From a virus (lineage: Duplodnaviria > Heunggongvirae > Uroviricota > Caudoviricetes): a DNA stretch of 25,058 nucleotides. The DNA lies in IMG/VR virus record IMGVR_UViG_2529292919_000017; one strand, 5' to 3'. Of this stretch, positions 4,535-24,065 are shown piece after piece (the stretch's first letter is position 1; each line of letters begins with the position of its first letter). The notes below the pieces were generated by a model. It saw only the letters and a program-made list of their open reading frames with translations, did not search any database and had not been told where the DNA came from. Made by a program: the position numbers and the translations under genes.

Positions 4535-4620
4535 AGCCCCAAGATATCTGACCAACTAAGGCCATATGCGTTTCCACGCATACCTTTCAACTAACTATTC
4601 ACTATTGGAAATCTTAAGAA

Positions 4621-8392: not shown

Positions 8393-8418
8393 CCATCTAC
8401 ATCACTGAGCTAATAACA

Positions 8419-8445
8419 GGCCTGCTGGTAATCGCAGGCCTTTTT
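8419..8445 (+). terminator. rho-independent terminator (tR2-like)
   Basis: Stem GGCCTGC (8419-8425) / GCAGGCC (8434-8440), 8-nt loop, then TTTTT (8441-8445); between ren and the nin region. Confidence 0.55.
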
Positions 8446-8464
8446 ATTTGGGGGAGAGTAAATC

Positions 8465-8791: not shown

Positions 8792-8813
8792 GCAGAATTA
8801 AGTCGAGGTAACA

Positions 8814-9260: not shown

Positions 9261-9784
9261 CTATCAAATCAAATACGCCAGCACACGACAAGGACTGCTG
9301 GCAAACGCCGCTTTGGCTTTTTGATGCACTGGATATTGAGTTTGGATTCTGGCTGGATTCGGCAGCGAGCGACAAAAATGCTCTGTGCGCTCACTGGCTA
9401 ACTGAGGCTGACGACGCGCTAAATTCTGAGTGGGTAAGCCACGGTGCAATCTGGAATAACCCACCGTACAGCAATATCAGGCCGTGGGTGGAAAAAGCCG
9501 CTGAGCAGTGTATACAACAACGACAGACGGTAGTGATGCTTGTGCCAGAGGATATGTCAGTCGGATGGTTCAGCAAGGCTCTGGAGAGTGTCGACGAAGT
9601 TCGTATTATCACTGATGGACGGATTAATTTTGTCGAACCATCGACAGGACTGGAGAAGAAGGGAAACAGCAAAGGTTCCATGCTGCTGATTTGGCGACCG
9701 TTCATCAGTTCTCGACGGATGTTTACTACTGTATCCAAAGCGGCATTGATGGCGATCGGGCAGGGCGTCAGGAGGGCAGCATGA
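9257..9784 (+). CDS. dam: phage-type DNA N6-adenine methyltransferase
   Basis: 175-aa ORF with the catalytic NPPY motif (IWNNPPYSN) and the conserved N-terminal [18 protein letters not shown] block typical of the phage Dam family. Confidence 0.8.
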
Positions 9785-9963
9785 GACGACAGCGACGAAG
9801 TTTCACCGACATCATCTGCGAAAACTGCAAATACCTTCCAACGAAACGCTACAGAAATAAACGCAAGCCAATCCCAAAAGAATCTGACGTAAAAACCTTC
9901 AACTACACGGCTCACCTGTGGGATATCCGGTGGCTAAGACATTGTGCGAGGAAAACAAGGTGA
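9781..9963 (+). CDS. ninE: NinE-like protein (60 aa)
   Basis: ATG 9781 overlaps the dam stop; [60 protein letters not shown] resembles lambda NinE from memory. Confidence 0.6.
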
Positions 9964-10130
9964 TTGACCAAAATCGAAGTTACGAACAAGAAAGCGTCGA
10001 GCGAGCTTTAACGTGCGCTAACTGCGGTCAGAAGCTGCATGTGCTGGAAGTTCACGTGTGTGAGCACTGTTGCGCAGAACTTATGAGCGATCCGAATAGC
10101 TCAATGTACGAGGAAGAAGACGATGAATGA
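9960..10130 (+). CDS. ninF: NinF-like small cysteine-rich protein
   Basis: GTG 9960 overlapping the ninE stop (or in-frame ATG at 9918); [56 protein letters not shown] has a CxxC...CxxCC pattern. Confidence 0.55.
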
Positions 10131-10845
10131 GTTAATAAATGGCAATGCCATAAAAATGACAAGCATTGAAATCGCTGAGTTGGTTGGTAAGCGTCATGAC
10201 AATGTGAAACGTACCATCGAAACGCTGGCTAAAAATGGTGTTATCCGGCTTCCTCAAATTGAGGATTGTGGAAGAATCAATGGGTTAGGCTTAAATCAAA
10301 GTTTTTGTGTGTATGTATTCGAAGGCGAACAAGGAAAGCGAGACAGTATTGTCGTTGTAGCCCAGTTGTCGCCGGAATTCACGGCTCGCCTTGTTGACCG
10401 TTGGCGAGAGCTTGAAGAAGCTGCGGTTAATATCCCAAAAACGCTACCAGAAGCGTTGCGCCTTGCTGCTGACCTTGCTGAGCAGAAAATGCAACTGGAA
10501 AACCAGCTAGCAATTGCCGCACCTAAAGTTGAGTTTGCCGATCGCGTTGGCGAGGCCAGCGGAATTTTGATTGGAAACTTTGCAAAGGTTGTTGGAATTG
10601 GTCCAAACAAACTGTTTGCGTGGATGCGCGATCACAAAATCCTTATTGCTTCAGGTTCCCGGCGCAATGTGCCAATGCAGGAATATATGGATCGCGGCTA
10701 TTTCACAGTGAAAGAAACAGCGGTCAACACAAATCACGGAATACAGATATCGTTCACCACAAAAATCACCGGGTGTGGTCAACAGTGGCTGACCAGAAAG
10801 CTGCTCGATAACGGAATGCTGAAAGTAACAGGGGAGGCTGCTTAA
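10123..10845 (+). CDS. Rha-family N-terminal domain fused to a KilAC (ANT) C-terminal domain; putative antirepressor
   Basis: 240-aa ORF; N-terminal MTSIEIAELVGKRHDNVKRTIETL is the Rha-type motif; C-terminal FADRVGEASGILIGNFAKVVGIGPNKLFAWMRDHKIL...QEYMDRGYF is the KilAC-type motif. Domain call from memory of the family patterns. Confidence 0.65.
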   Translation: MNELINGNAIKMTSIEIAELVGKRHDNVKRTIETLAKNGVIRLPQIEDCGRINGLGLNQSFCVYVFEGEQGKRDSIVVVAQLSPEFTARLVDRWRELEEAAVNIPKTLPEALRLAADLAEQKMQLENQLAIAAPKVEFADRVGEASGILIGNFAKVVGIGPNKLFAWMRDHKILIASGSRRNVPMQEYMDRGYFTVKETAVNTNHGIQISFTTKITGCGQQWLTRKLLDNGMLKVTGEAA

Positions 10846-11135
10846 TGGCTAACCTACGCAAAGAAGCTCGCGGCAGAGAATGCCAGGTACGTATTTACGG
10901 CGTATGCAATGGCAACCCTGAAACTACAGTTCTGGCACATTACCGGATGGCTGGAATTTGCGGAACGGGAATGAAGCCTGACGACCTGATCGGCGCATGG
11001 GCTTGTAGCGCGTGTCACGATGAAATCGACCGACGCACCCATAACCTCGACAACAAAGACGCCAGACTTTACCACCTCGAAGGCGTGATCAGGACGCAGG
11101 CGATACTGCTGAAGGAGGGGAAGATTAAGCCATGA
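10845..11135 (+). CDS. ybcO: YbcO-like (DUF1364) putative nuclease
   Basis: 96-aa ORF MANLRKEARGRECQVRIYGVCNGNPETTVLAHYRM...CSACHDEIDRRTH, closely resembling DLP12 YbcO from memory. Confidence 0.6.
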   Translation: MANLRKEARGRECQVRIYGVCNGNPETTVLAHYRMAGICGTGMKPDDLIGAWACSACHDEIDRRTHNLDNKDARLYHLEGVIRTQAILLKEGKIKP

Positions 11136-11494
11136 ACGAATATCAGTTTGTGCTTCCATACCCGCCGTCGGTGAATACCTACTGGCGAAGACGGGGAGGC
11201 CAATACTACATCAGCGATAAAGGCCAGAAATACCGAAAAGACGTTCAGCAAATCATTCGCCAACTCAAGTTAGACATTTTCACCAAATCACGACTCCGTA
11301 TCAAAGTCATCGCAGACGTTCCAGACTCCCGCCGCCGCGACCTCGACAACATCCTGAAAGGTTTACTCGACTCCCTTATCCACGCCGGATTTGCGGAAGA
11401 CGACGAGCAATTCGATGACATTCGCGTAATTCGTGGTGTGAAAGTACCAGGCGGAAGGCTTGGAATAAAAATCACCGAACTGGAGAACACATGA
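11132..11494 (+). CDS. rusA: RusA Holliday-junction resolvase
   Basis: 120-aa ORF; PYPPSVNTYW and DSRRRDLDNILKGLLDSL match the RusA catalytic region; ATGA overlap with the preceding gene. Confidence 0.85.
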   Translation: MNEYQFVLPYPPSVNTYWRRRGGQYYISDKGQKYRKDVQQIIRQLKLDIFTKSRLRIKVIADVPDSRRRDLDNILKGLLDSLIHAGFAEDDEQFDDIRVIRGVKVPGGRLGIKITELENT

Positions 11495-11625
11495 ACAAAG
11501 CATTCGAACGATATATGCGCCAGCGTTATGGCAATCGCTACGATCTTACCCGCGATGCTTACGGCTTCTACTGTCGTGAGGTTGTGAAACGAATGTTTGA
11601 AGTGTGGTGTCATTGCAAAGGATAG
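11491..11625 (+). CDS. ylcG: YlcG-like small protein (44 aa)
   Basis: ATG 11491 overlaps the rusA stop; MNKAFERYMRQRYGNRYDLTRDAYGFYCREVVKRMFEVWCHCKG; same position as ylcG between rusA and Q in DLP12. Confidence 0.5.
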   Translation: MNKAFERYMRQRYGNRYDLTRDAYGFYCREVVKRMFEVWCHCKG

Positions 11626-11636
11626 AGGGGAAGACG

Positions 11637-12260
11637 ATGAGACTCGAAAGCGTAGCTAAATTTCATTCGCCAAAAAGCCCGATGATGAGCGACTCACCAC
11701 GGGCCACGGCTTCTGACTCTCTTTCCGGTACTGATGTGATGGCTGCTATGGGGATGGCGCAATCACAAGCCGGATTCGGAATGGCTGCATTCTGCGGTAA
11801 GCACGAACTCAGCCAGAACGACAAACAAAAGGCTATCAACTATCTGATGCAATTTGCACACAAGGTATCGGGGAAATACCGTGGCGTGGCAAAGCTTGAA
11901 GGAAATACTAAGGCAAAGGTACTGCAAGTGCTCGCAACATTCGCTTATGCGGATTATTGCCGTAGTGCCGCGACGCCGGGCGCAAGATGCAGAGATTGCC
12001 ACGGTACAGGCCGTGCGGTTGATATAGCCAAAACAGAGCAGTGGGGGATAGTTGCTGAGAAAGAGTGCGGAAGATGTAAAGGCGTCGGTTATTCAAGAAT
12101 GCCAGCAAGCGCCGCATATCGCGCTGTGACGATGCTAATCCCAAACCTTACCCAACCCACCTGGTCACGCACTGTTAAGCCGCTGTATGACGCTCTGGTT
12201 GTGCAATGCCACAAGGAAGAGTCAATCGCAGACAACATTTTGAATGCGATCACACGTTAG
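11637..12260 (+). CDS. Q: late-gene antiterminator Q (lambda type)
   Basis: ATG 11637 after AGAGGGGAAG; MRLESVAKFHSPKSPMMSDSPRATASDSLSGTDVMAAMGMAQSQAGFGMAAFCGKHELSQ... matches lambda Q from memory over 207 aa. Confidence 0.9.
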   Translation: MRLESVAKFHSPKSPMMSDSPRATASDSLSGTDVMAAMGMAQSQAGFGMAAFCGKHELSQNDKQKAINYLMQFAHKVSGKYRGVAKLEGNTKAKVLQVLATFAYADYCRSAATPGARCRDCHGTGRAVDIAKTEQWGIVAEKECGRCKGVGYSRMPASAAYRAVTMLIPNLTQPTWSRTVKPLYDALVVQCHKEESIADNILNAITR

Positions 12261-12302
12261 CGCCATGATTGCCACGGATGGCAACATATTAACGGCATAA
12301 TA

Positions 12303-12335
12303 TTGACTTTTTGAATAACTTTGGGGAAACTTGAC
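12303..12335 (+). promoter_or_regulatory. pR'-like late promoter with qut, -10 hexamer altered relative to lambda
   Basis: TTGACT (12303-12308), spacer TTTTGAATAACTTTGGG, then GAAACT (12326-12331), parallel to lambda TTGACT-TATTGAATAAAATTGGG-TAAATT; resemblance to lambda appears to stop just after TTGAC at about 12335. Confidence 0.45.
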
Positions 12336-12472
12336 ACCAATAATGGGCGTTTTTTACATGTCATTGATGAGTCTCAATAACCTGCCGCCGAGTAGTTTTT
12401 ATGCTCTGAATTGTATTTGTGTAGTAAACATGCTGACTGCAATGTAATAGAGTTTTTTTAGCCTGTAACCTC

Positions 12473-12502
12473 TTGACGGCATTGAATTGCTTTTGTTATG
12501 AG
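12473..12502 (+). promoter_or_regulatory. candidate sigma70 promoter for the membrane-protein gene
   Basis: -35 TTGACG (12473-12478), 17-18 bp spacer, -10 TTATGA/TATGAG (12496-12502), about 40 bp upstream of ATG 12540. Confidence 0.3.
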
Positions 12503-12539
12503 TTGTAAGCCAATGTTATCATCTTGTATTGGGGTGGTT

Positions 12540-13256
12540 ATGAAGGATGGTGCACTGCTCAGGAGTTCTTCACTTTTTATTGCCTACATGGGATGCCTTG
12601 GATGGGGGAGTGCTTATTTCTATGGATGGGGTACTTCTTTTTACTACGGCTTCCCATGGTGGATTGTAGGTGCAGGTGTTGATGATGTTGCCAGAAGTTT
12701 ATTTTTTGCAGTTATCGTCATTGCTATATTTCTTATCGGTTGGGGTATTGGTGTTGTATTCTTTTTCGCAGTGAAAAGAAAACATTCTATGCAAGAGCTA
12801 AATGTATTTCGCCTTTATTTTGCTGTGGAATTATTGTTTGTGCCGGCAATTATTGAGTTTTCTATATTGAGACAGAAGATTCAGGTACCTCTTTTGCTAC
12901 TGTCAGCAGCGATTGCGCTGGCGGTTACAATTTCGATAAGATCTTATGGGCGATTTTTATCGGTATCATGCTTCTATGATAAGCCATTTATAAAAAAACA
13001 TTTTTTTGAGATTGTGATGATTGCTTTTGTGGCATATTTCTGGTTTTTTTCATTTCTGACAGGATATTACAAACCGCAGTTTAAGAAAGAATATGAAATG
13101 ATTAATTATAATGATGGTTGGTATTATGTTCTTGCTCGTTATGATAATTGTCTGGTTTTGTCTACTTCTTTCAATGCAGGTAGTAAAAGGTTTGTCATTT
13201 ATCAATCAGCACAAGATAAGAATCTTCAGGTTGATATTGTAAGGACCAGAATTTAA
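12540..13256 (+). CDS. polytopic inner-membrane protein of unknown function (about 238 aa, 5-6 predicted TM helices plus a C-terminal soluble tail)
   Basis: ATG 12540 after GGGGTGG (track ORF starts at 12498). Hydrophobic segments LFIAYMGCLGWGSAYFYGW, LFFAVIVIAIFLIGWGIGVVFFFAV, LYFAVELLFVPAIIEFSIL, VPLLLLSAAIALAVTISI, FFEIVMIAFVAYFWFFSFLTGYY; C-terminal YNDGWYYVLARYDNCLVLSTSFNAGSKRFVIYQ. Visibly AT-rich relative to the flanking phage genes. Confidence 0.65.
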   Translation: MKDGALLRSSSLFIAYMGCLGWGSAYFYGWGTSFYYGFPWWIVGAGVDDVARSLFFAVIVIAIFLIGWGIGVVFFFAVKRKHSMQELNVFRLYFAVELLFVPAIIEFSILRQKIQVPLLLLSAAIALAVTISIRSYGRFLSVSCFYDKPFIKKHFFEIVMIAFVAYFWFFSFLTGYYKPQFKKEYEMINYNDGWYYVLARYDNCLVLSTSFNAGSKRFVIYQSAQDKNLQVDIVRTRI

Positions 13257-13686
13257 TTGGCTGCATAAATAATATTTTAAGTTGCAAGTTGGCTATTCGT
13301 AGGAATAGAACCTTAGGCATGCTGAATGCGTTTTCTGAACATTGTTTTATAAACTGTGTCTGCTTGCTGTTGTGATCCTGCTTTTAGTGATGGTGATGAT
13401 GGATTTCACCAGCAGGATAATGTTGGTACTGACTGATGGCGCTCTGGTCTGCGGCATTGTGGTATTGCTGTGGCCGATGATGAAAAAACAGAATGAATAA
13501 TCCTTGACTTTTTTGTTTACTGTTTATTAAAAAATCAACCGCATGGTGAATCCTCCTTGGAGGGGCTAAATGATCGAGTTTTAAGGGCACGTAGCGAGTT
13601 CTGTTTGATCATTGCAGAACTTAGCGGGAGGCGCCATGCGTACATCACTAATGTTATTTCCTTCTATCATTTTCCTTGTGAGTTCT

Positions 13687-13713
13687 GGCTGCGCATGGCG
13701 CGGCCTTTTTTTT
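13687..13713 (+). terminator. rho-independent terminator
   Basis: Stem GGCTGCGC (13687-13694) / GCGCGGCC (13698-13705) with one G-U pair, 3-nt loop, then eight T (13706-13713). Confidence 0.55.
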
Positions 13714-13894
13714 ATGACCTGCCACTGGCAGATGGTCATCCTGTGATTTGATTCCGGTTCCGGCTTTTTAACTCTGTTCCTGTACACGGGAGAAATTCTA
13801 TGTCGATTAATCGTTATGATATTGGTTACAAGAAGTACCACGTATTGTGTTGAGATAGAAAGCATGGTGCCAGAGGTAAATGCAGCAGCATAAT

Positions 13895-13942
13895 AAAAAA
13901 GAGCCAGCGCAGAAGAGAACGGGTAAAAGAGTCTGCGCTGGC
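13895..13942 (-). terminator. rho-independent terminator on the minus strand with no obvious upstream gene
   Basis: Perfect 11-bp stem GCCAGCGCAGA (13903-13913) / TCTGCGCTGGC (13932-13942) with an 18-nt loop; the plus-strand A-run 13895-13900 gives a U-run after the stem on the minus strand. Confidence 0.45.
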
Positions 13943-14058
13943 GTGGGGATATTCCCCGTGGAGAAATGATATGTAACACACATCGGGAACCTTTCTATAT
14001 AAACATTATCATTATTGTCAATCATAACAGTCAGGTATTATGACGTTTATGCATCAGG

Positions 14059-14086
14059 GCCATCAGGAATTAACTGGTGGCTTTTT
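14059..14086 (+). terminator. rho-independent terminator immediately upstream of the holin gene (tR'-like)
   Basis: Stem GCCATCAG (14059-14066) / CTGGTGGC (14074-14081) with one G-U pair, 7-nt loop, then TTTTT (14082-14086); about 35 bp before the S start. Confidence 0.5.
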
Positions 14087-14121
14087 ATTGTTGTCAGCTT
14101 CCGGATAACGGGAGACGGGGT

Positions 14122-14337
14122 ATGTACCAGATGGAAAAAATAACAACAGGTGTGTCATACACCACGTCAGCGGTGGGGACGGGATACTGGCTACTGCAGT
14201 TGCTGGACAAAGTCTCCCCATCCCAGTGGGTGGCAATAGGCGTATTGGGTAGCCTGGTGTTTGGCTTGCTGACGTATCTGACAAACCTTTATTTCAAGAT
14301 TAAAGAAGATAAGCGTAAGGCTGCGAGAGGTGAATAA
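14122..14337 (+). CDS. S: holin S (phage-21 type, dual-start motif)
   Basis: ATG 14122 after GGGAGACGGGG; [45 protein letters not shown]... with two Met codons separated by YQ (antiholin/holin starts); matches the S21-type holin from memory. Confidence 0.85.
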
Positions 14338-14834
14338 TGTCGCCATCATTACGCAAGGCTGTTGCTGCTGCTATTGGTGGTGGGGCTGTTGCCATAGCGT
14401 CTGTGCTCATCACTGGTCCGAGTGGTGACGATGGCCAGGAAGGTGTCAGCTACATACCATACGAAGATATCGTTGGCGTATGGACTGTATGTCACGGACA
14501 CACCGGAAAAGACATCATTCCCGGTAAAACGTATACCGAAGCAGAATGCAAAGCCCTCCTGAATAAAGACCTTGCCATGGTCGCCAGACAAATTAACCCG
14601 TACATCAAAGTCGATATACCGGAAACAACGCGCGGCGCTCTTTACTCGTTCGTTTACAACGTGGGCGCTGGTAATTTCAGAACATCGACGCTTCTTCGCA
14701 AAATAAACCAGGGTGATATCAAAGGCGCATGTGACCAGCTACGTCGCTGGACATACGCTGGCGGTAAGCAATGGAAAGGGCTGATGACCCGTCGTGATAT
14801 TGAGCGTGAAGTCTGTTTGTGGGGGCAGCAATGA
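14337..14834 (+). CDS. R: SAR endolysin R (lysozyme with N-terminal signal-anchor-release domain)
   Basis: 165-aa ORF; N-terminal [21 protein letters not shown] is a Gly/Ala-rich SAR segment; followed by lysozyme-like sequence; start overlaps the S stop (TAATG). Confidence 0.85.
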
Positions 14835-15298
14835 GCAGGGTAACCGCGATTATCTCCGCTCTGGTTATTTGCATCATCCTCTGCCTGTCATGGGCTGTTA
14901 ATCATTACCGTGATAACGCCATCGCCTACAAAGAGCAGCGTGATAAAAAAGTCAGTGAGCTGAAGCAGGCGACCGCCACCATTACTGACATGCAGCAACG
15001 CCAGCGTGCTGCTGATGTACTCGATGCTAAATACACGAAGGAGTTAGCCAATGCGAAAGCTGAAAATGATGCTCTTCGGCGTAAGCTTGATAATGGTGGT
15101 CGGGTGCTCGTCAAAGGAAAATGCCCTGTGCCAGCCTCAGCCAAAACCTCCAGCTCCTCCGGCATGGGCAATGATGCCACCGTCGAACTCTCTTCAGTTG
15201 CTGGACGAAACGTTCTCGGTATCCGGGACGGAATTATCCGTGACCAAACAGCACTGAGAACGCTTCAGGAGTACATCAGGACGCAATGCCTGAAATAA
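14831..15298 (+). CDS. Rz: Rz i-spanin
   Basis: ATG 14831 (ATGA overlap with the R stop); [34 protein letters not shown]... matches the lambda Rz N-terminus from memory. Confidence 0.85.
15051..15257 (+). CDS. Rz1: Rz1 o-spanin lipoprotein, embedded in Rz in the +1 frame
   Basis: 68-aa ORF inside Rz; signal peptide ending in lipobox VVGC, then a proline-rich stretch [11 protein letters not shown] as in lambda Rz1. Confidence 0.75.
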
Positions 15299-15328
15299 TT
15301 TTTTTGCAAATCACAAAGTCAATTTAAT

Positions 15329-15354
15329 GAGCCTCGCGATGCGGGGCTTTTTTA
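15329..15354 (+). terminator. rho-independent terminator after the lysis cassette
   Basis: Stem GCCTCGC (15331-15337) / GCGGGGC (15341-15347) with one G-U pair, loop GAT, then TTTTTT (15348-15353). Confidence 0.55.
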
Positions 15355-15496
15355 TGTCCGCAGTAAACGCGCATCTCACGCGCATATTAACGAGAGCCTT
15401 TCAGTAAGCGAGCCTGAGAAATGCCGTTATAGGTGGCGACCTCTCTCGGGCGGCTTTTCTGTGAGACAGGCTCACTTTCTAAAAGGTAAAGACGCT

Positions 15497-16021
15497 ATGA
15501 ATAATCATTCAGTTATTCCAGCCTTCGACTTCCGAGAAATGGTGCAAGCCAAAAACGGAGAGGTCGTTACCACATCCAGAAAAATTGCCAAGTACTTCGG
15601 CAAGCGACACGGTGATGTTCTCAGGAAAATCGAGCAGGTTAAGGCTGATTGCTCGCGTGAGTTTAGCCAACGCAATTTTGCGTCGGCTGATTATATCGAT
15701 GAGCAGGGCAAGGTTCGCCCGATGTACAGCCTGACGAAAGATGGCTGGATCATGGTTGTGATGGGGTTCACCGGGAAAGCTGCTGCGGCAATCAAGGAGA
15801 GCTATATCGCAGCATTCAACTGGATGGCAGAGCAACTGAGCCGCCGCATGGCAATTGGCGAAGAAATGCAGCACCGCTACGCCATCAAAGAAACACGCTC
15901 AAAGCTGAAAGGTACGATCGGCAGTCGGTTAATGAACGAACGGAAGAAAGAGAAGCGTGTCCTGGCTGTCGAGCATGAATACATTTTGCAGGTGACACAG
16001 CCTGAACTGCTGATTAATTGA
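15497..16021 (+). CDS. Rha-family phage regulatory protein
   Basis: ATG 15497 (the track ORF starts at GTG 15461); FREMVQAKNGEVVTTSRKIAKYFGKRHGDVLRKIEQV is the Rha-type N-terminal motif; lies between Rz and cos. Confidence 0.65.
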   Translation: MNNHSVIPAFDFREMVQAKNGEVVTTSRKIAKYFGKRHGDVLRKIEQVKADCSREFSQRNFASADYIDEQGKVRPMYSLTKDGWIMVVMGFTGKAAAAIKESYIAAFNWMAEQLSRRMAIGEEMQHRYAIKETRSKLKGTIGSRLMNERKKEKRVLAVEHEYILQVTQPELLIN

Positions 16022-16155
16022 AGATGTCATTACAAAGCCTATCTACGGGTGGGCTTGATAATGGCTTATACCCTGCACGGGATAACTTAACTGATATCCC
16101 TTTTAACGGATAAAGGTATTCAAGCCTGACACATCATGCGCTGTATCGTCGCCGT

Positions 16156-16218
16156 ATTCCCGCATTAACCATGATCGTAGCCCGACGGGGAATTCCTTCT
16201 GCGTGAGTGTGCGGGAAT
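16156..16218. repeat. nested inverted-repeat element in the cos-proximal non-coding region
   Basis: ATTCCCGCA (16156-16164) and TGCGGGAAT (16210-16218) are perfect inverted repeats enclosing an inner palindrome CCCGACGGGG (16181-16190). In revcomp the block resembles a lambda segment between bor and cos as I recall it. Confidence 0.4.
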
Positions 16219-16439
16219 AATCAAAAACGATGCACACCGGGTTTTTACCGCGTTTATGATTCGTGGGTTTGTCCCTCATGCTCGCCAGTCCTGTGCGGGG
16301 GTGGAAGAAACAGGACGCTCACACAGATTCTTGTAGGTACGATGCTATTCCTTTCTGGATTATCCCGATGCCATTCATGCAGGGCGCTGTATCAGACGTT
16401 CGTCATGGCTGTCAGGCTGACGGGTCCTCCTGGTGGGGT

Positions 16440-16636
16440 GGCCTGCCACGGGGCGGGAGCGTCGCGGAAAAAGGCTAGTTTTTGAAATTTCATTCGTCAT
16501 CACCACTGCTGTAATTGATTGATATTGCAGTAGTTTTATTTTTGCGGTGTCGATTTTGATTGTTTTTTGTTCATCGCTAACACCGTTTGCCTAAAGTTGT
16601 TCGCAAGATGCATGTTTAAAACATTCTGGAGCGGGT
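16440..16636 (+). other. cos site (cosN with cosB-like region) upstream of the terminase small subunit
   Basis: ACGGGGCGGGAGCGTCGCGG (16448-16467) aligns with lambda ACGGGGCGGCGACCTCGCGG; the downstream TTTTTGAAATTTC parallels lambda TTTATGAAAATTTTC; about 170 bp before the Nu1-like start, as in lambda. Confidence 0.5.
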
Positions 16637-17131
16637 ATGGATCGAGAGTTAAAAAATCTGACGCTGAATATCAGTCAACTGGCGGCACTGTCAGGTGTAC
16701 ATCGCCAGACTGCTGCGGCAAGGCTGCAAAATCTACCCGTTGCAGGGGGGCATGAAAGCAACCTCAAGCTTTATCGGGTGGTTGATATTGTGTCGGCATT
16801 TCTGGCATTGCCACCGCCGGTTGCAGAAGGCGAAATGGACGCGCATGAGCGCAAAGCCTGGTATCAGTCTGAACGTGAGCGTCTTAAGTTCGAACAGGAA
16901 ACGGCACAACTCATTCCGGCCAGTGATGTCAGACGGGAGTTTGCCATCTGGGCAAAAGCGGTCGTGCAGGTGCTGGAGACATTACCGGATATTCTGGAAC
17001 GTGACTGCGGTCTGCAGCCTGCCGCTGTGAGCCGTGTTCAGTCCATTATTGATGATCTGCGCGATCAGATAGCCCTGCGGGTGACTGAAGCAGGTGCGGA
17101 TGATGAGGAGGAATTACAGCAGGAGGAGTAA
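16637..17131 (+). CDS. terminase small subunit (Nu1 family)
   Basis: 164-aa ORF; N-terminal LTLNISQLAALSGVHRQTAAARLQNLP is the Nu1-type HTH; acidic C-terminus; stop overlaps the start of the next gene. Confidence 0.8.
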   Translation: MDRELKNLTLNISQLAALSGVHRQTAAARLQNLPVAGGHESNLKLYRVVDIVSAFLALPPPVAEGEMDAHERKAWYQSERERLKFEQETAQLIPASDVRREFAIWAKAVVQVLETLPDILERDCGLQPAAVSRVQSIIDDLRDQIALRVTEAGADDEEELQQEE

Positions 17132-19200
17132 TGCTGAATCAGGAAACCGCAAAGGCAGCACGAACCGATTCAGGTTATATCCTTCGCGCACCGAGACGAA
17201 TGCGGGTTGCTGATGCCGTTGCTCAGTATATGCGGGTGCCCATGGGGGCCGGGAACTCAGTCCCGTGGGATCCGCTGGTGGCACCGTATGTTATTGAGCC
17301 GATGAACTGCCTGGCCTCGCGTGAATACGACGCAGTGATATTTGTTGGCCCGGCACGAACTGGCAAGACTATCGGCCTGATTGACGGCTGGGTGATTTAC
17401 AACGTGATTTGCGATCCTGCGGATATGCTGATCATTCAGATGACGGAGGAAAAAGCCCGCGAACACTCCAAAAAACGACTTGCCAGAACGTTTCGCGTCA
17501 GCCCGGAAGTGGTCAGTCGCCTGAGTCCGAACAAAAATGACAACAACGTTTATGACAGAACATTCCTTGCTGGCAACTACCTGAAAATCGGCTGGCCGTC
17601 AGTCAATATCATGTCCTCATCAGATTATAAATGCGTGGCGCTGACGGATTATGACCGTTTTCCGGAAGATATTGATGGCGAGGGGGATGCCTTCTCTCTT
17701 GCCTCAAAACGTACCACCACATTTATGTCCAGTGGTATGACGCTGGTGGAGAGTTCCCCCGGCAGGGATGTGAAGGATGTGAAATGGCGACGGACTTCAC
17801 CGCATGAGGCTCCACCAACCACGGGGATACTGTCGCTCTATAACCGTGGCGATCGCCGTCGCTGGTACTGGCCCTGTCCACACTGTGGTGAGTATTTTCA
17901 GCCCTGCGGCGATGTGGTTGCTGGTTTCCGTGATATTGCCGATCCCGTGCTGGCAAGTGAGGCGGCTTATATTCAGTGTCCTTCCTGTTCAGGACGGATT
18001 ATGCCTGAACAAAAACGTGAGCTGAACGGACGTGGGGTCTGGTTGCGGGATGGTGAATCCATCAATGCGGATGGCAGTCGTTATGGTGATCCCCGACGCT
18101 CACGTATTGCGTCATTCTGGATGGAGGGTCCGGCAGCTGCTTACCAGACACTCTCGCAACTCGTTTACAAACTGCTTACTGCAGAACAGGAATACGAGAC
18201 AACCGGAAGTGAAGAAACACTCAAGACGGTTATCAATACCGACTGGGGATTACCTTATCTTCCCCGTGCCAGCATGGAGCAACGAAAAAGTGAACTGCTT
18301 GAGCAGCGGGCAGAGCCAGTTCCTTCCCGCAGTGTGCCGGATGGCGTTAATTTCCTGGTGGCGACAGTTGATGTGCAGGCGGGACGTCATCGCCGTTTTG
18401 TGGTTCAGGTAACGGGCTATGGCAGCCGTGGCGAACGCTGGATTATTGATCGTTACAACATCACGCAGTCATTGCGCGGTGACAGCGACGGGGAGAGCCA
18501 GCGAATTGATCCGGCCAGCTATCCGGAAGACTGGGATGTCCTGCTGACGGATGTTTTTCATAAAAGCTGGCCGCTGGCCTCCGATCCTTCTCAACAAATG
18601 CGACTGATGGCAATGGCGGTGGACTCCGGCGGTGAAGACGGGGTCACTGATAATGCCTATAAATTCTGGCGTCGTTGCCGTCGTGATGGCCTTGGTAAAC
18701 GTATTTACCTGTTTAAGGGCGACAGCATCCGGCGCGCAAAACTGATCACCCGTACATTCCCTGATAACACCGGACGAACGGGCCGACGGGCGCAGGCCGC
18801 AGGTGATGTGCCGCTCTGGCTTCTTCAGACGGATGCCCTGAAAGACCGGATGAATAACGCGTTATGGCGTGACTCGCCAGGTCCCGGCTATGTGCATTTC
18901 CCTGACTGGCTGGGGAGCTGGTTTTACGACGAACTGACGTATGAAGAGCGGAGTAGTGACGGGAAATGGAGTAAGCCGGGTCGCGGTGCCAACGAAGCTT
19001 TTGACCTGATGGTGTATGCCGAGGCTCTGGTCATTCTGCATGGATACGAAAAGATCCGCTGGCCGGATGCACCGGAGTGGGCGAGCCGGGAAACCTGGCT
19101 GGAGTGTGTCCCGGACAGTACCGAACCGTCATCCTCACCGGAACCGGTATCCACGCCTGTTAAAAAACAAAAACGGAAGAAAAGTAACCGGCTCATTTAA
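17131..19200 (+). CDS. terminase large subunit (GpA family); the last five codons and stop come from the IS66-family terminal repeat
   Basis: 689-aa ORF; Walker-A-like FVGPARTGKT; overall GpA-like. Codons 19184-19200 (S-N-R-L-I-stop) lie inside the IS inverted repeat GTAACCGGCTCATTTAA, so the native C-terminus is replaced. Confidence 0.85.
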   Translation: MLNQETAKAARTDSGYILRAPRRMRVADAVAQYMRVPMGAGNSVPWDPLVAPYVIEPMNCLASREYDAVIFVGPARTGKTIGLIDGWVIYNVICDPADMLIIQMTEEKAREHSKKRLARTFRVSPEVVSRLSPNKNDNNVYDRTFLAGNYLKIGWPSVNIMSSSDYKCVALTDYDRFPEDIDGEGDAFSLASKRTTTFMSSGMTLVESSPGRDVKDVKWRRTSPHEAPPTTGILSLYNRGDRRRWYWPCPHCGEYFQPCGDVVAGFRDIADPVLASEAAYIQCPSCSGRIMPEQKRELNGRGVWLRDGESINADGSRYGDPRRSRIASFWMEGPAAAYQTLSQLVYKLLTAEQEYETTGSEETLKTVINTDWGLPYLPRASMEQRKSELLEQRAEPVPSRSVPDGVNFLVATVDVQAGRHRRFVVQVTGYGSRGERWIIDRYNITQSLRGDSDGESQRIDPASYPEDWDVLLTDVFHKSWPLASDPSQQMRLMAMAVDSGGEDGVTDNAYKFWRRCRRDGLGKRIYLFKGDSIRRAKLITRTFPDNTGRTGRRAQAAGDVPLWLLQTDALKDRMNNALWRDSPGPGYVHFPDWLGSWFYDELTYEERSSDGKWSKPGRGANEAFDLMVYAEALVILHGYEKIRWPDAPEWASRETWLECVPDSTEPSSSPEPVSTPVKKQKRKKSNRLI

Positions 19201-19236
19201 ACCGTCTGGTCTGTTTCCTCCGGCTCTACAAAAATA

Positions 19237-19914
19237 ATGTCCATCATTTTTAATGGACACTATCGTATGAAACACCGGACCTGGATCACTGAAGCTTTAC
19301 GTCTTCACTTTGAAGAACATTTACCCCGGGTTGTGGCCGGGCGTCGCCTGGGTGTACCAAAATCAACAGTTTGTAGTATGTTCGTGCGCTTTCGGAGAGC
19401 TGGCCTTTCGTGGCCTTTGCCCGCAGGCATGTCGGAGCAGGAACTTGATGCCTGCCTTTACGGACAATTTTCCACGGTACCAGTCGTACGTCCTGAAAGC
19501 ACCGTTATATCCGAAGCCCCCGTGGTAAAAAAACGTCCCCGGCGGCCCAACTTCCCTTATGAGTTTAAAATCGCCTTAGTGGAGCAGTCACTGCAGCCCG
19601 GAGCCTGTGTGGCGCAGATCGCCCGGGAAAACGGAATCAACGATAACCTGCTCTTCAACTGGCGCCATCAATACCGGAAAGGTGGCCTGCTGCCTTCCGG
19701 AAAAAATATGCCGGCACTGCTTCCCGTGACGTTAACGCCGGAGCCGGATAATAAAATCCCGGCCCCCGCACAGGAACCAGAGCAGATAAATACACCGTCC
19801 GACAGTCTGTGTTGTGAGCTGGTTCTGCCGGCCGGAACTCTCAGGCTTAAAGGTAAACTGACGCCGGCGTTATTACAGACACTTATCCGCGAAATAAAAG
19901 GGAGCAGCCACTGA
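19237..19914 (+). CDS. IS66-family accessory protein (orfA-type, HTH)
   Basis: 225-aa ORF; the C-terminal half (…PNFPYEFKIALVEQSLQPGACVAQIARENGINDNLLFNWRHQYRKG…) resembles IS66 TnpA-type proteins; the true start is uncertain (ATG 19237 or 19267). Confidence 0.65.
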   Translation: MSIIFNGHYRMKHRTWITEALRLHFEEHLPRVVAGRRLGVPKSTVCSMFVRFRRAGLSWPLPAGMSEQELDACLYGQFSTVPVVRPESTVISEAPVVKKRPRRPNFPYEFKIALVEQSLQPGACVAQIARENGINDNLLFNWRHQYRKGGLLPSGKNMPALLPVTLTPEPDNKIPAPAQEPEQINTPSDSLCCELVLPAGTLRLKGKLTPALLQTLIREIKGSSH

Positions 19915-20261
19915 TGATATCTCTCCCTGCAGGTTCGCGTATCTGGCTGGTTGCAGGTATCACCGATATGCGAAATGGCTTTAACGGCCTGGCATCAAAA
20001 GTTCAGAACGTCCTGAAGGATGACCCGTTCTCCGGACACCTGTTCATCTTCCGCGGACGCCGGGGTGACCAGATAAAAGTGTTGTGGGCTGACAGTGACG
20101 GACTGTGCCTCTTCACCAAACGCCTGGAGCGGGGCCGCTTCGTCTGGCCAGTCACCCGTGACGGCAAGGTGCACCTTACTCCGGCTCAGTTATCCATGCT
20201 TCTTGAAGGTATCAACTGGAAGCACCCGAAACGAACGGAACGCGCTGGAATCCGCATATAA
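19914..20261 (+). CDS. IS66-family Orf2 (TnpB-type) protein
   Basis: 115-aa ORF MISLPAGSRIWLVAGITDMRNGFNGLASKVQNVL... typical of IS66 Orf2; start overlaps the upstream stop. Confidence 0.85.
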   Translation: MISLPAGSRIWLVAGITDMRNGFNGLASKVQNVLKDDPFSGHLFIFRGRRGDQIKVLWADSDGLCLFTKRLERGRFVWPVTRDGKVHLTPAQLSMLLEGINWKHPKRTERAGIRI

Positions 20262-20280
20262 CCCGTTGTAAAGTGAGGAT

Positions 20281-21852
20281 ATGGACACCTCACTTGCTCA
20301 TGAGAACGCCCGCCTGCGGGCACTGTTGCAGACGCAACAGGACACCATCCGCCAGATGGCTGAATACAACCGCCTGCTCTCACAGCGGGTGGCGGCTTAT
20401 GCTTCCGAAATCAACCGGCTGAAGGCGCTGGTTGCGAAACTGCAACGTATGCAGTTCGGTAAAAGCTCAGAAAAACTTCGTGCAAAAACCGAACGGCAGA
20501 TACAGGAAGCACAGGAGCGAATCAGCGCACTTCAGGAAGAAATGGCGGAAACGCTGGGTGAGCAATATGACCCGGTACTGCCATCCGCCCTGCGCCAGTC
20601 TTCAGCCCGTAAACCGTTACCGGCCTCACTTCCCCGTGAAACCCGGGTTATCCGGCCGGAAGAGGAATGCTGTCCTGCCTGTGGTGGTGAACTCAGTTCT
20701 CTGGGATGTGATGTGTCAGAGCAACTGGAGCTTATCAGCAGCGCCTTTAAGGTTATCGAAACACAACGTCCGAAACAGGCCTGTTGCCGGTGCGACCATA
20801 TCGTGCAGGCACCAGTACCTTCAAAACCCATTGCACGCAGTTATGCCGGAGCGGGGCTTCTGGCCCATGTTGTCACCGGGAAATATGCAGACCATCTGCC
20901 GTTATACCGCCAGTCAGAAATATACCGTCGTCAGGGAGTGGAGCTGAGCCGTGCCACACTGGGGCGCTGGACAGGTGCTGTTGCTGAACTGCTGGAGCCG
21001 CTGTATGACGTCCTGCGCCAGTATGTGCTGATGCCCGGTAAAGTCCATGCTGATGATATCCCCGTCCCGGTCCAGGAGCCGGGCAGCGGTAAAACCCGGA
21101 CAGCCCGGCTGTGGGTCTACGTCCGTGATGACCGTAACGCCGGTTCACAGATGCCCCCGGCGGTCTGGTTCGCGTACAGTCCGGACCGGAAAGGTATCCA
21201 TCCACAAAATCACCTGGCCGGTTACAGCGGTGTGCTTCAGGCCGATGCTTACGGTGGTTACCGGGCGTTATACGAATCCGGCAGAATAACGGAAGCCGCG
21301 TGTATGGCTCATGCCCGGAGAAAAATCCACGATGTGCATGCAAGAGCGCCCACCTACATCACCACGGAAGCCCTGCAGCGTATCGGTGAACTGTATGCCA
21401 TCGAGGCAGAGGTCCGGGGCTGTTCAGCAGAACAGCGTCTGGCGGCAAGAAAAGCCAGAGCCGCGCCACTGATGCAGTCACTGTATGACTGGATACAGCA
21501 ACAGATGAAAACACTGTCGCGTCACTCAGATACGGCAAAAGCGTTCGCATACCTGCTGAAACAGTGGGATGCACTGAACGTGTACTGCAGTAATGGCTGG
21601 GTGGAAATCGACAACAACATCGCAGAGAACGCCTTACGGGGAGTGGCCGTAGGCCGGAAAAACTGGATGTTCGCGGGTTCCGACAGCGGTGGTGAACATG
21701 CGGCGGTGTTGTACTCGCTGATCGGCACATGCCGTCTGAACAATGTGGAGCCAGAAAAGTGGCTGCGTTACGTCATTGAACATATCCAGGACTGGCCGGC
21801 AAACCGGGTACGCGATCTGTTGCCCTGGAAAGTTGATCTGAGCTCTCAGTAA
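20281..21852 (+). CDS. IS66-family transposase (TnpC-type)
   Basis: 523-aa ORF with an N-terminal coiled-coil/leucine-zipper region, a CxxC...CxC zinc motif (CPACGG...CRCDH) and a long DDE-type catalytic region, as in IS66 transposases. Confidence 0.9.
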
Positions 21853-21882
21853 ATATCAATACGGTTCTGACGAGTCGCTTAC

Positions 21883-22038
21883 AGATAAAAAGCAGATACA
21901 GTGTGTGGTAAGACCGCTGCAAATCCTGCGTGCTGACGGGACGTGGGAAAATATTGGCGGGATGAAATAGCCGACGGGTTCACAAAAAAACCGGAGTCCG
22001 GCTCCGGTTTTTGTTGTCATGCCATGGTGATGTTTGTT
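21883..22038 (+). repeat. copy 1 of a ~150-bp direct repeat, carrying a palindromic terminator-like hairpin
   Basis: AGATAAAAAGCAGATACAGTG...GGCGGGATGAAATAGCCGACGGGTTCAC-AAAAAAACCGGAGTCCGGCTCCGGTTTTTGTTGTCATG... is repeated at 22771-22915 with about 90 percent identity; hairpin CCGGAG/CTCCGG at 21991-22007 flanked by an A-run and a T-run. Begins at the IS66 right end. Confidence 0.7.
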
Positions 22039-22084
22039 ATGACTCCCTGTGTTTGGAATGAATATTTAAATAGGGAGTTTTGTC

Positions 22085-22663
22085 ATGCCATCATTAGTTT
22101 CAGGTATTCAATCATCCTCACTTTCCACCGGAATGCAGGTTCTTCGTGCTCAAATGGCCGCCAGTGGTGGTGGAGAAATTACAGTAGGCGGACAGACGGT
22201 TAGTATCACATATAGTGAAACGGATGGTCGCTTTCTGGCGAGTGGGGGCAATAACAGTTTGCTTTCTGGATTATTACTTACAGGGCTTAATGGTGGTCCT
22301 GAAGCGCTCAGGGATATAATGTTAAGAATGGTTTCAGGTTCAGGTAACACACAATCACATGGTGATATTGAGGGGAAAATATCACAATATAAGTTTTCGG
22401 TTAATACGCAGAGCCTTCAGTGCCCATCCGAGGCGGTTCGATGCCCAATTATACTGGATAAGCCAGAAGAAGGTGTGTTTGTTAAAAATTCAGAAGATTC
22501 TTTGGTTTGTACCTTATTTGATTCGGTTTCTTTTTCTCATTTGGTTCGTGACGGTGGGAGGCACCCGCTAACACGAGAACCAATAACGTCATCAATGATT
22601 GTAAGTCCAGAACAATGTATTTATGACCAAGCCAAAGGAAACTTTGTCATAAAGGATAAGTGA
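22085..22663 (+). CDS. nleG: NleG-family T3SS effector (U-box-type E3 ubiquitin ligase)
   Basis: 192-aa ORF in an AT-rich context; C-terminal region VRCPIILDKPEEGVFVKNSEDSLVCTLFDSVSFSHLVRDGGRHPLTREPITSSMIVSPEQCIYD has the pattern I recall for the NleG U-box domain. Family call needs a search. Confidence 0.6.
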   Translation: MPSLVSGIQSSSLSTGMQVLRAQMAASGGGEITVGGQTVSITYSETDGRFLASGGNNSLLSGLLLTGLNGGPEALRDIMLRMVSGSGNTQSHGDIEGKISQYKFSVNTQSLQCPSEAVRCPIILDKPEEGVFVKNSEDSLVCTLFDSVSFSHLVRDGGRHPLTREPITSSMIVSPEQCIYDQAKGNFVIKDK

Positions 22664-22770
22664 AATAAATATTACCCAAGCTATATGTTAACTGCCAGTT
22701 GCTTATATGAAATGCTACAGATGTTCAGGGTATAAGGATGTGGTAATAACACAGGTGGTGTACTGGATGC

Positions 22771-22915
22771 AGATAAAAAGCATATACAGTGAGTGGAGAG
22801 GCCGCTAATCAGTCGTGCTGACGGGGAAATATTGGCGGGATGAAATAGCCGACGAGTTCACAAAAACCGGAGTCCGGCTCCGGTTTTTGTTGTCATGTCC
22901 GGTGGATGTTTGTTA
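22771..22915 (+). repeat. copy 2 of the same direct repeat, between the NleG-like and NleB-like genes
   Basis: Same block as 21883-22038, including the hairpin CCGGAGTCCGGCTCCGG (22867-22883) followed by TTTTT. Confidence 0.7.
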
Positions 22916-23024
22916 GGAAAGCAAAGATGGCAAAACTGCTGGAGGTTTTGTGGTTGAGTATGCCAATATAATTAATAGATTAAAGAGTTAGTTGTGAAGA
23001 AAATATGGATAAACAGGACGACGA

Positions 23025-24005
23025 ATGCTTTCACCGATAAGGACAACTTTCCATAACTCAGTAAATATAGTGCAGAGTTCACCCTGTCAAACGGTTTCTT
23101 TTGCAGGAAAGGAATATGAGTTAAAGGTCATTGATGAAAAAACGCCTATTCTTTTTCAGTGGTTTGAACCTAATCCTGAACGATATAAGAAAGATGAGGT
23201 TCCAATAGTTAATACTAAGCAGCATCCCTATTTAGATAATGTCACAAATGCGGCAAGGATAGAGAGTGATCGTATGATAGGTATTTTTGTTGATGGCGAT
23301 TTTTCAGTCAACCAAAAGACTGCTTTTTCAAAATTGGAACGAGATTTTGAAAATGTAATGATAATCTATCGGGAAGATGTTGACTTCAGTATGTATGACA
23401 GAAAACTATCAGATATTTATCATGATATTATATGTGAACAAAGGTTACGAACTGAAGACAAAAGAGATGAATACTTGTTGAATCTGTTAGAGAAAGAGCT
23501 GAGGGAAATTTCAAAGGCGCAGGATTCTTTGATTTCTATGTATGCAAAGAAAAGAAATCATGCATGGTTTGATTTCTTCAGAAATTTAGCCTTATTAAAA
23601 GCAGGAGAGATATTCAGGTGCACATATAATACAAAGAATCACGGTATTTCATTCGGGGAGGGGTGTATCTATCTTGATATGGATATGATACTTACAGGTA
23701 AGCTTGGTACAATATATGCTCCTGATGGAATTTCAATGCATGTGGATCGTCGTAATGATAGTGTAAATATTGAAAATAGTGCAATAATTGTTAACCGTAG
23801 TAATCATCCTGCTCTACTTGAGGGACTTTCTTTTATGCATAGTAAAGTAGATGCTCATCCATATTATGATGGTTTGGGGAAAGGAGTTAAGAAATATTTT
23901 AATTTTACACCATTACATAATTATAATCATTTTTGTGACTTTATTGAGTTTAACCACCCTAATATAATCATGAACACAAGTCAGTATACATGCAGTTCAT
24001 GGTAA
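23025..24005 (+). CDS. nleB2: NleB-family T3SS effector (arginine GlcNAc-transferase), NleB2-like
   Basis: 326-aa ORF; blocks VSFAGKEY, EKTPILFQWFE, DVDFSMYD, KLSDIY, WFDFFRNLA, GCIYLDMDMI (DxD motif), LYAPDGI, VNRSNHPALL, VDAHPYYDGLGKG, FCDFIEF match NleB as I recall it. Confidence 0.8.
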   Translation: MLSPIRTTFHNSVNIVQSSPCQTVSFAGKEYELKVIDEKTPILFQWFEPNPERYKKDEVPIVNTKQHPYLDNVTNAARIESDRMIGIFVDGDFSVNQKTAFSKLERDFENVMIIYREDVDFSMYDRKLSDIYHDIICEQRLRTEDKRDEYLLNLLEKELREISKAQDSLISMYAKKRNHAWFDFFRNLALLKAGEIFRCTYNTKNHGISFGEGCIYLDMDMILTGKLGTIYAPDGISMHVDRRNDSVNIENSAIIVNRSNHPALLEGLSFMHSKVDAHPYYDGLGKGVKKYFNFTPLHNYNHFCDFIEFNHPNIIMNTSQYTCSSW

Positions 24006-24065
24006 ATGAATTTGATATAGTTTATTTTGTTGTAATAAATGATTTGCAGGGTATTAGATATAAAC

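Follow-up and report, generated by a model that had tools for sequence, protein, structure and literature searches.

A probable ISCro1-bounded deletion between the packaging genes and the effector cargo of a lambdoid prophage in Escherichia coli

Background

In the stretch of DNA analysed here (25,058 nucleotides of contig AIEY01000034.1, draft E. coli genome GCA_000249115.2; hereafter the window), the large-terminase gene of a lambdoid prophage runs straight into an insertion sequence (IS) of the IS66 family. On the far side of the IS lie genes for type III effectors, and no portal, head or tail genes were found there in the window. Is this layout native to the phage, the outcome of a simple insertion, or the scar of a deletion? 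The literature regards adjacent deletions as a routine product of IS activity (PMC8860574). The element concerned, ISCro1, was originally named from Citrobacter rodentium ICC168, a strain with 24 copies of it (PMC3072379). A literature search returned nothing usable on the source accession or describing the related prophage PP4.

Here, I argue that a copy of PP4 has decayed at this locus, a real ISCro1-bounded deletion having left one full-length IS at the exact join of an 18,306-bp loss. The probability of this reading is put at about 0.85, a figure that concerns the reality of the deletion and not the choice of the route by which it arose.

Results

The element is a complete ISCro1 (Table 1). 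Its terminal inverted repeats are 22 nt each, imperfect (73% complementary) and start with 5'-GTAA; tnpA, tnpB and tnpC are consecutive, all three score well over the NCBIfam/Pfam cut-offs for IS66, and together they comprise the Pfam domains HTH_Tnp_1, TnpB_IS66, LZ_Tnp_IS66, zf-IS66, DDE_Tnp_IS66 and DDE_Tnp_IS66_C. Its identity is defined against five RefSeq copies annotated 'IS66-like element ISCro1 family': the copy of strain TB354, so labelled in RefSeq, shows no mismatch, the four others show 2-21, and all share the length, the gene order and the GTAA-starting imperfect repeats. Start and end bases are identical in 5/5 of these copies, and the copy in the window is intact to the last base, left and right. 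An initial annotation had set an IS66 element at the terminase 3' end, which stands; the span that it gave, 19176-21890, takes in both 8-bp flanks as well as the IS. At a coverage of at least 80%, ISCro1 is present in 1,369 of 5,426 complete E. coli genomes.

Table 1. Features around the ISCro1 join (positions are those of the window)
Feature	Position	Strand	Remarks
gpA-type large terminase subunit fused to IS left end, 689 aa	17131..19200	+	684 native residues + SNRLI + stop
Left 8-bp flank, GAAGAAAA	19176..19183	.	intact prophage continues CAGTAACTGACG...
ISCro1 (IS66 family), full length, 2,699 bp	19184..21882	+	0 mismatches to strain TB354 copy
Left terminal inverted repeat, GTAACCGGCTCATTTAAACCGT	19184..19205	+	encodes terminase codons N-R-L-I + stop
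tnpA (IS66 accessory protein, 225 aa)	19237..19914	+	NF038385, 295.8 bits (cut-off 150)
tnpB (IS66 accessory protein, 115 aa)	19914..20261	+	NF033819, 128.9 bits; PF05717
tnpC (IS66 DDE transposase, 523 aa)	20281..21852	+	NF033517, 477.9 bits; PF13007, PF13005, PF03050, PF13817
Right terminal inverted repeat, ACGGTTCTGACGAGTCGCTTAC	21861..21882	+	
Right 8-bp flank, AGATAAAA	21883..21890	.	preceded by ...GTGATACTGGATGC in intact prophage
Tail-fibre C-terminal-domain gene, 3' remnant (last 88 of 270 nt), without start codon	21883..21970	+	100% identical to E2348/69 locus L001 20002-20089, in CDS 19820-20089
A-run / GC hairpin / T-run, terminator-like, native 3' of tail-fibre gene	~21982..22016	+	fold -22.6 kcal/mol, z = -2.3
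nleG (type III effector, 192 aa)	22085..22663	+	PF06416; protein identical to E2348/69
nleB2 (effector arginine glycosyltransferase, 326 aa)	23025..24005	+	100% DNA identity with E2348/69 nleB2
nleC (effector zinc protease, 339 aa)	24039..25058	+	100% DNA identity with E2348/69 nleC

The terminase carries the domains GpA_ATPase (PF05876, residues 41-304) and GpA_nuclease (PF20454, residues 326-644), and its reading frame ends in K-K-S-N-R-L-I-stop, the S codon being made of an A from the phage and GT from the IS, and the remainder coming from the left inverted repeat. The native protein of E2348/69 has 700 aa and ends in K-K-TVTDDVNPWLTSGGWL-stop; its final 16 residues (TVTDDVNPWLTSGGWL) are gone and SNRLI stands in their place, which bears out the initial view that the IS supplies the final five codons with the stop and that the native C-terminus is lost. 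In lambda, the C-terminal tail of gpA is the part that binds the prohead. The 689-aa fusion is a singleton in a collection of about 15 billion proteins, and the gene is best annotated as a pseudogene-like fusion.

The closest intact relative is the prophage PP4 of the EPEC O127:H6 strain E2348/69 (NC_011601.1, approximately 1043517-1088543, at the torS/torT site). Window positions 1-5378 and 6929-19183 match it at 99.9% identity and positions 21882-25058 at 100%, with the same gene order and the same cargo (nleG, nleB2, nleC and nleD), and the source contig continues into torT, torR and torC, the chromosomal neighbours of PP4. In E2348/69 the two flanks of the IS are colinear and co-oriented, yet 18,306 bp apart, and this interval (NC_011601.1 1065895-1084200) is missing from the window. 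It begins with the 3'-terminal 50 nt of the large-terminase gene, runs through 18 whole morphogenesis genes (the small gene after the terminase, the portal, the protease/capsid fusion, the head-tail joining genes, all tail genes, the tape measure, J, lom and the tail-fibre N-domain gene) and ends 182 nt into the tail-fibre C-domain gene. Retained are the early, lysis and packaging genes on the left and, on the right, the tail-fibre terminator and nleG-nleB2-nleC(-nleD). The window in turn has two elements that PP4 lacks, ISCro1 at the join and a copy of ISEc13 that separately disrupts the replication gene O; the latter, on the same contig, shows a clean duplication, and no siblings carrying this insertion in gene O were found. 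E2348/69 itself seems to be without ISCro1, as suggested by a query that included the left end of the element and found one matching place only.

Since in the intact prophage the terminase is 700 aa long and morphogenesis genes spanning 18,306 bp separate the flanks, the adjacency of terminase and effectors is derived and not native. The reading of the initial annotation, an IS-mediated deletion joining the packaging module to the effector cargo, with no portal, head or tail genes after the IS, is thus supported; it needs correcting in that it let the effectors start directly after the IS, for the tail-fibre remnant and the terminator-like hairpin come before nleG. This hairpin, retained between IS and nleG, was not flagged by a consensus scan.

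The flanks carry the mark of the event. Left and right 8-bp flanks, described from the outset as non-identical, match at 5/8 positions and form no duplication; each is native PP4 sequence in its native orientation, and on re-mapping against the five other ISCro1 copies the ends did not move and no 8-bp duplication emerged. By contrast, simple insertions of ISCro1 in other strains show an exact 8-bp duplication in 5/5 cases, one of them by a copy with 0 mismatches to the IS in the window: TGTTAAAA in the terminase, 18 bp upstream of the left junction site; CGTAAAAA in the portal gene; GGACGCTC in gpJ; and, in the tail-fibre C gene, GGAGCAGG, 42 bp before the right junction site, and GATACAGT, 12 bp after it. 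The missing duplication is therefore owed to the history of this copy and not to its family, and its hybrid flanks are what an IS-bounded deletion leaves behind, in keeping with the complete IS, with native flanks that share order and orientation in the intact prophage, and with the absence of the DNA that lies between them there. The earlier proposal that one side of the IS was deleted or recombined, rather than that a simple insertion occurred, holds, and the sequence fits either process.

The left junction recurs in the assemblies of read sets SRR094164 and SRR094165, and in none of about 1,890 complete genomes with a matching terminase 3' region. The right junction is seen in the NCBI draft contig only, which runs there through a multi-copy 2.7-kb repeat; it is absent from all complete E. 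coli genomes searched, and queries with guessed partial reading frames in three registers gave no match in the SRR094164 and SRR094165 assemblies, where short edge frames may go unrecorded. The event is private to this strain. A lineage-restricted PP4 tail protein (a C40 peptidase) occurs on 10 contigs; the 18.3 kb could still be present elsewhere in the source genome.

Discussion

Three readings would do away with an ISCro1-bounded deletion. The least probable by far, to the point of being negligible, is a simple insertion into a prophage that natively places its effectors after a short terminase: it has the raw look of the window on its side and nothing more, whereas the flanks differ, unlike those of the five duplicated insertions, E2348/69 has 18,306 bp between them, the right flank begins midway through a tail-fibre gene, and in the 99.9-100% identical relative the terminase measures 700 aa and the morphogenesis module is complete, a comparison that refutes a native short-terminase/effector layout. 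Very improbable, too, is a deletion independent of the IS, by illegitimate or inter-prophage recombination, that happens to abut it. The lineage does possess several related lambdoid prophages with similar tail-fibre/effector regions (6 places in E2348/69); yet on either side the deletion stops at the very base at which an intact IS terminates, and both flanks are of PP4 type, at 99.9-100% identity and in the chromosomal context of PP4. An assembly artefact is improbable, though the likeliest of the three: the strain would have the 18.3-kb module enclosed by two ISCro1 copies, one in the terminase and one in the tail-fibre gene, the assembler would have collapsed the repeat and skipped the module, and the true junctions would read ...GGATGCAGATAAAA joined to GTAACCGG... 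and ...CGCTTAC joined to GAAGAAAACAGTAAC... In its favour, the draft contig crosses two multi-copy IS elements and is the one place where the right junction is seen; against it, ISEc13 with its clean duplication is resolved in the same contig, so that the assembler copes with repeats, and the predicted 68-aa tail-fibre::IS reading frame does not occur in the protein collection, a weak argument given that short frames may go uncalled and that a difference of one residue hides a match.

As to the route of the ISCro1-bounded deletion, two candidates yield an identical sequence. Slightly favoured, at roughly even odds, is recombination between two co-oriented copies: ISCro1 would have inserted twice, independently, once into the terminase (at GAAGAAAA) and once into the tail-fibre gene (at AGATAAAA); the two 2.7-kb copies would then have undergone homologous recombination, and the one IS left over would carry on its left the duplication of one copy and on its right that of the other. 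The second candidate, tentative but to be taken seriously, is that a single ISCro1 inserted into the tail-fibre gene or near the end of the terminase gene, and that one of its ends then transposed intramolecularly into the second site, with loss of everything between (an adjacent deletion); this route predicts the same product (an intact IS with one original and one new target flank), needs fewer events, and gains from the fact that no second-copy intermediate was found anywhere searched. Against it, replicative or one-ended intramolecular transposition is not known to have been demonstrated in the IS66 family, nor is a deletion-forming route known to have been worked out there experimentally, and a single-insertion parent with a duplication of GAAGAAAA or AGATAAAA was not found either. 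Indeed, synthetic junction queries of 5,426 complete E. coli genomes gave no parental IS with either duplication, only nearby independent insertions, and a tail-fibre::IS fusion protein, the sign of a second copy, is absent from the collection of about 15 billion proteins, the SRR094164 and SRR094165 assemblies included. The want of a parental intermediate bears on the order of events and on the route; it does not contradict the deletion itself. Among relatives (locus L022 and strain STEC388), two ISCro1 copies occur in and next to a single PP4 copy, one in gpJ and one in the neighbouring torR, and there are further copies without duplications.

The locus shares with the IS-associated deletions of EHEC/EPEC prophages, and with the adjacent deletions by IS1, IS903, Tn5 and IS629, an intact IS at the join, a one-sided loss, hybrid flanks and an immobilised prophage that keeps its virulence cargo. 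It differs from them in the family of the IS, here IS66, and from the sibling ISCro1 copies, which make 8-bp duplications, in the hybrid flanks that mark a deletion join. A partial parallel is offered by STEC388 (NZ_CP041425.1), in which ISCro1 likewise cuts the 3' part of a gpA-type terminase, with no morphogenesis genes after it and unmatched flanks; the prophage and the cut site are different, however, and ISCro1 is nested there (a 407-nt fragment and a full copy), followed by fragments of other IS.

I infer that the prophage can neither make particles nor package DNA, gene O being broken as well; the effector genes would thereby be locked into the chromosome, their own upstream region preserved. 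IS-bounded deletion is an ordinary, well-understood form of prophage decay, and the locus leaves knowledge of IS elements and of prophage decay unchanged. What it provides is a base-resolved example of an effector-carrying lambdoid prophage turning into a fixed chromosomal island, one IS-bounded event having removed every particle gene while sparing nleG, nleB2, nleC, nleD and their upstream sequence. In annotation, the prophage can be treated as non-inducible as a particle, and the locus may serve as a lineage marker for the source strain. Less probably, ISCro1 itself created the join in a single step, which would be natural evidence for intramolecular (adjacent-deletion) transposition in the IS66 family; if true, then together with the STEC388 terminase and the insertions clustered near both junctions, it would suggest that ISCro1 is a recurrent, site-biased agent of domestication of lambdoid prophages in attaching-and-effacing E. 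coli.

Two apparent regularities of ISCro1 insertion did not hold. Both flanks in the window end in AAAA, but a preference for A-rich targets is ruled out by the duplications GGAGCAGG, GATACAGT and GGACGCTC. The shared orientation of 6/6 late-operon insertions reflects ascertainment bias, as the junction queries could recover co-oriented copies only; among loci retrieved through NleG, with the orientation of the IS disregarded, ISCro1 lies in the opposite orientation at torR in L022 and downstream of nleD in another locus (L017).

The ISCro1 copy and its missing target duplication

Four open reading frames run in the same direction through the 18900-22200 region, as seen from the ORF listing and a reading of the window: a 689-aa frame and three more, which encode the transposition proteins of an IS66-family element (Table). 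The terminal inverted repeats, together with the start at 19184 of matches annotated 'IS66-like element ISCro1 family' in a megablast search of 5,426 complete E. coli genomes, set the element at 19184-21882 (2,699 bp). ISCro1 was found at a coverage of at least 80% in 1,369 of these genomes; it is a described IS66-family element, expanded to 24 copies in C. rodentium (PMC3072379) and common in E. coli (PMC8764528). The initial annotation had drawn the element from 19176 to 21890, a span that contains ISCro1 but whose outer 8 bp on each side are its left flank, GAAGAAAA, and its right flank, AGATAAAA. Two bases past the breakpoint, the native terminase gene of E2348/69 (L001 1698-1702) reads GTAAC, identical to the left terminus of the IS (19184-19188), so that the megablast terminase match runs 5 nt into ISCro1; this identity is probably due to chance.

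Features of the window and ISCro1 insertions in other strains (/, junction)
Feature	Position	Remarks
Large terminase::IS fusion	17131-19200	689 aa; ATPase and nuclease domains of gpA type, as in large terminases of the lambda type
Left junction, window		...CGGAAGAAAA / GTAACCGG...
ISCro1 terminal inverted repeats	19184-19205 and 21861-21882	22 nt, imperfect; repeat finder
TnpA, IS66 family	19237-19914	score far over curated cut-offs
TnpB, IS66 family	19914-20261	score far over curated cut-offs
TnpC, IS66-family DDE transposase	20281-21852	score far over curated cut-offs
Right junction, window		...CGCTTAC / AGATAAAAAGCAG...
Tail-fibre C gene remnant	21883-21970	88 nt, right of IS
A-run/GC-hairpin/T-run	~21982-22016	-22.6 kcal/mol, z = -2.3; simple scan negative
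ISEc13, IS4 family	5379-6928	1,550 bp; clean 8-bp duplication CAAAACAG
ISEc13 transposase ORF	5390-6763	minus strand
ISCro1, NCCP 13717 (L002)	18 bp upstream of window site, in the same terminase gene	8-bp duplication TGTTAAAA
ISCro1, 24AR0142 (L025)	portal	8-bp duplication CGTAAAAA
ISCro1, GCA_900448265.1 (L022), near-identical PP4 copy	gpJ (UFZD01000005.1 4367-7065)	simple insertion; 8-bp duplication GGACGCTC
ISCro1, TB354 (L007)	tail-fibre C-domain gene	8-bp duplication GGAGCAGG
ISCro1, OkiPb01717 (L008)	tail-fibre C-domain gene	8-bp duplication GATACAGT

That the element lacks a clean target duplication, as had been proposed, stands after its ends were re-mapped against five further ISCro1 copies, every one of them 2,699 bp long with identical terminal bases. 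All five carry an 8-bp duplication; the window copy does not. Because these sibling copies share their termini and each carry a duplication, and the TB354 copy equals that of the window at all 2,699 bases, the missing duplication is a real anomaly of this copy and not a mis-mapped end. No common motif was seen among the 8-bp duplications of the copies inspected.

Both window junctions lie 12-42 bp from independent ISCro1 insertions of other strains, and the late-operon insertions recovered are all co-oriented. The junction queries, however, could recover nearby, co-oriented copies only, and two other copies (in torR of L022 and at the comparison locus L017), on NleG-based loci fetched regardless of IS orientation, face the opposite way; no conclusion is therefore drawn on a hot spot or an orientation bias.

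An intact relative and the extent of the loss

The terminase::IS fusion protein, a singleton among ~15 billion proteins, is encoded exactly on AIEY01000034.1 (GCA_000249115.2), a contig identical to the window, and again on two short contigs independently assembled from the read sets SRR094164 and SRR094165, which end 28-29 nt into the IS, as expected at the start of a repeat. Flank searches lead to EPEC O127:H6 E2348/69, whose torS/torT prophage, the PP4 of the published genome description, matches window 1-5378 and 6929-19183 at 99.9% identity and 21882-25058 at 100%. The two matching blocks are colinear and co-oriented, and torT, torR and torC follow the effector genes in the source contig as they do in E2348/69.

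Between GAAGAAAA and AGATAAAA, E2348/69 carries 18,306 bp (L001 1696-20001, NC_011601.1 1065895-1084200), comprising 18 whole and two partial genes in its RefSeq annotation. At its left edge the interval takes in the final 50 nt of the terminase gene and at its right edge the 5' 182 of the 270 nt of the tail-fibre C-domain gene; in between lie the small gene after the terminase, the portal, a ClpP-like protease/major capsid fusion, two head-tail genes, genes for the tail tube and tail assembly (among them U, G and T), the tape measure, M, L, K, I, J (tip protein), lom and the N-domain gene of the tail fibre. The native arrangement thus differs from that of the window, as had been supposed: a prophage 99.9-100% identical to it has this morphogenesis interval and a 700-aa terminase. 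The latter ends in ...KK-TVTDDVNPWLTSGGWL, replaced in the window by ...KK-SNRLI, encoded by the left repeat of the IS, which bears out the suggestion that the C-terminus is IS-derived and the native end lost.

On the right, the 88-nt remnant places the breakpoint inside the tail-fibre gene. The effector genes nleG, nleB2 and nleC, all the same as in E2348/69, had been described as beginning directly after the IS, which is nearly so, but the remnant and the hairpin intervene. The tail-fibre 3' end and terminator (21882-22039) are repeated at ~85% identity at 22742-22915, just downstream of nleG, which is thereby flanked by direct repeats of ~160-190 bp that look like a cassette boundary.

The tape-measure and gpJ genes of the E2348/69 prophage (L001 8611-11666 and 14057-17771) are annotated as frameshifted pseudogenes, so the deleted module may have lost its function by the time of the common ancestor, before it was itself lost; J is intact (1,137 aa) in GCA_900450255.1 (L024). 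The window has eight additional bases relative to E2348/69 at 16407-16414 (GGCTGTCA, forming an imperfect tandem GGCTGTCA-GGCTGACG), the sole indel across 17.6 kb that is otherwise 99.9% identical; they lie in the non-coding stretch that separates the small terminase gene from a Rha-like gene, possibly the cos region.

How the deletion may have arisen

Both termini of an intact ISCro1 lie exactly at the deletion edges, and each flank is native sequence in native orientation. Such an arrangement classically marks an IS-bounded deletion, and supports the earlier proposal that such an event joined the packaging module to the effectors. Adjacent deletions are among the standard outcomes of IS activity (PMC8860574), and IS629-associated deletions and gene inactivation are well documented in EHEC prophages (PMC9943667).

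A real deletion has one serious rival, assembly collapse, whereby the draft assembler would have linked the left flank of one ISCro1 copy with the right flank of a second; this would imply extra junctions ...GGATGCAGATAAAA / GTAACCGG... and ...CGCTTAC / GAAGAAAACAGTAAC... in the source genome. The evidence from that genome consists of one contig of a draft assembly and two short read-set contigs, and the right junction is found in the draft contig only, searches of the read-set assemblies having given no match. Yet the left junction is reproduced in both read-set assemblies, the predicted second left junction (a tail-fibre::IS ORF) is missing from the protein collection, which covers SRR094164 and SRR094165, and on the same contig ISEc13 was resolved together with its clean duplication; a collapse is thus quite improbable.

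For a real deletion, we slightly favour (probability about 0.5) a route in which two co-oriented ISCro1 elements would have inserted, one at each site, both producing an 8-bp duplication of their own, and homologous recombination between them would have left a single copy that keeps, on its left, the duplication from one insertion and, on its right, that from the other. It calls for no activity beyond those seen here, simple insertion (in five copies) and recombination of long repeats, and in the related strain L022 a single PP4 locus carries ISCro1 twice, within the prophage (gpJ) and in the adjacent torR. A one-step adjacent deletion, in which one end of a single inserted ISCro1 would transpose intramolecularly into the second site, would yield the same product and is a possible, somewhat less probable route; we know of no demonstration of intramolecular deletion formation for the IS66 family. 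The choice of route is an inference, for no intermediates were found: the junctions 'IS right end + GAAGAAAACAGTAAC...' and '...GGATGCAGATAAAA + IS left end' are absent from the 5,426 complete E. coli genomes, and the 68-aa tail-fibre::IS fusion from the ~15 billion proteins. Among the data searched the event is private to one strain, while its kind is fully known already.

In parallel, STEC388 (L026, NZ_CP041425.1 4015-7120) shows IS-bounded loss of the late region of a prophage; there, as in the window, a gpA-type terminase is truncated by ISCro1 with no morphogenesis genes behind it; unlike in the window, the gpA-type terminase is a different one and the full ISCro1 is inserted into a 407-nt ISCro1 fragment. 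ISAs1 and IS1 fragments lie beyond the nested element. In L022, the second ISCro1 (UFZD01000005.1 ~16170-18870), opposite in orientation to the gpJ copy, has flanks CCTGTATC / CGCGATCT with no duplication, and an NleG-like fragment and a DUF4765 gene stand in place of the remainder of torR, suggesting a further IS-associated rearrangement.

Consequences for the prophage

ISEc13 interrupts the replication gene O (the 'replication protein' of E2348/69, L006 13228-14127), an insertion shared by none of the complete E. coli genomes; in E2348/69, ~31 places match a query of which one half is the ISEc13 end. The C-terminal tail of lambda gpA is its prohead-binding end. With head and tail genes gone, the terminase deprived of its native C-terminal tail and gene O interrupted, the prophage would be unable to form particles. 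The effector genes still have the tail-fibre terminator and the native sequence upstream of them, and their expression is therefore probably unchanged.
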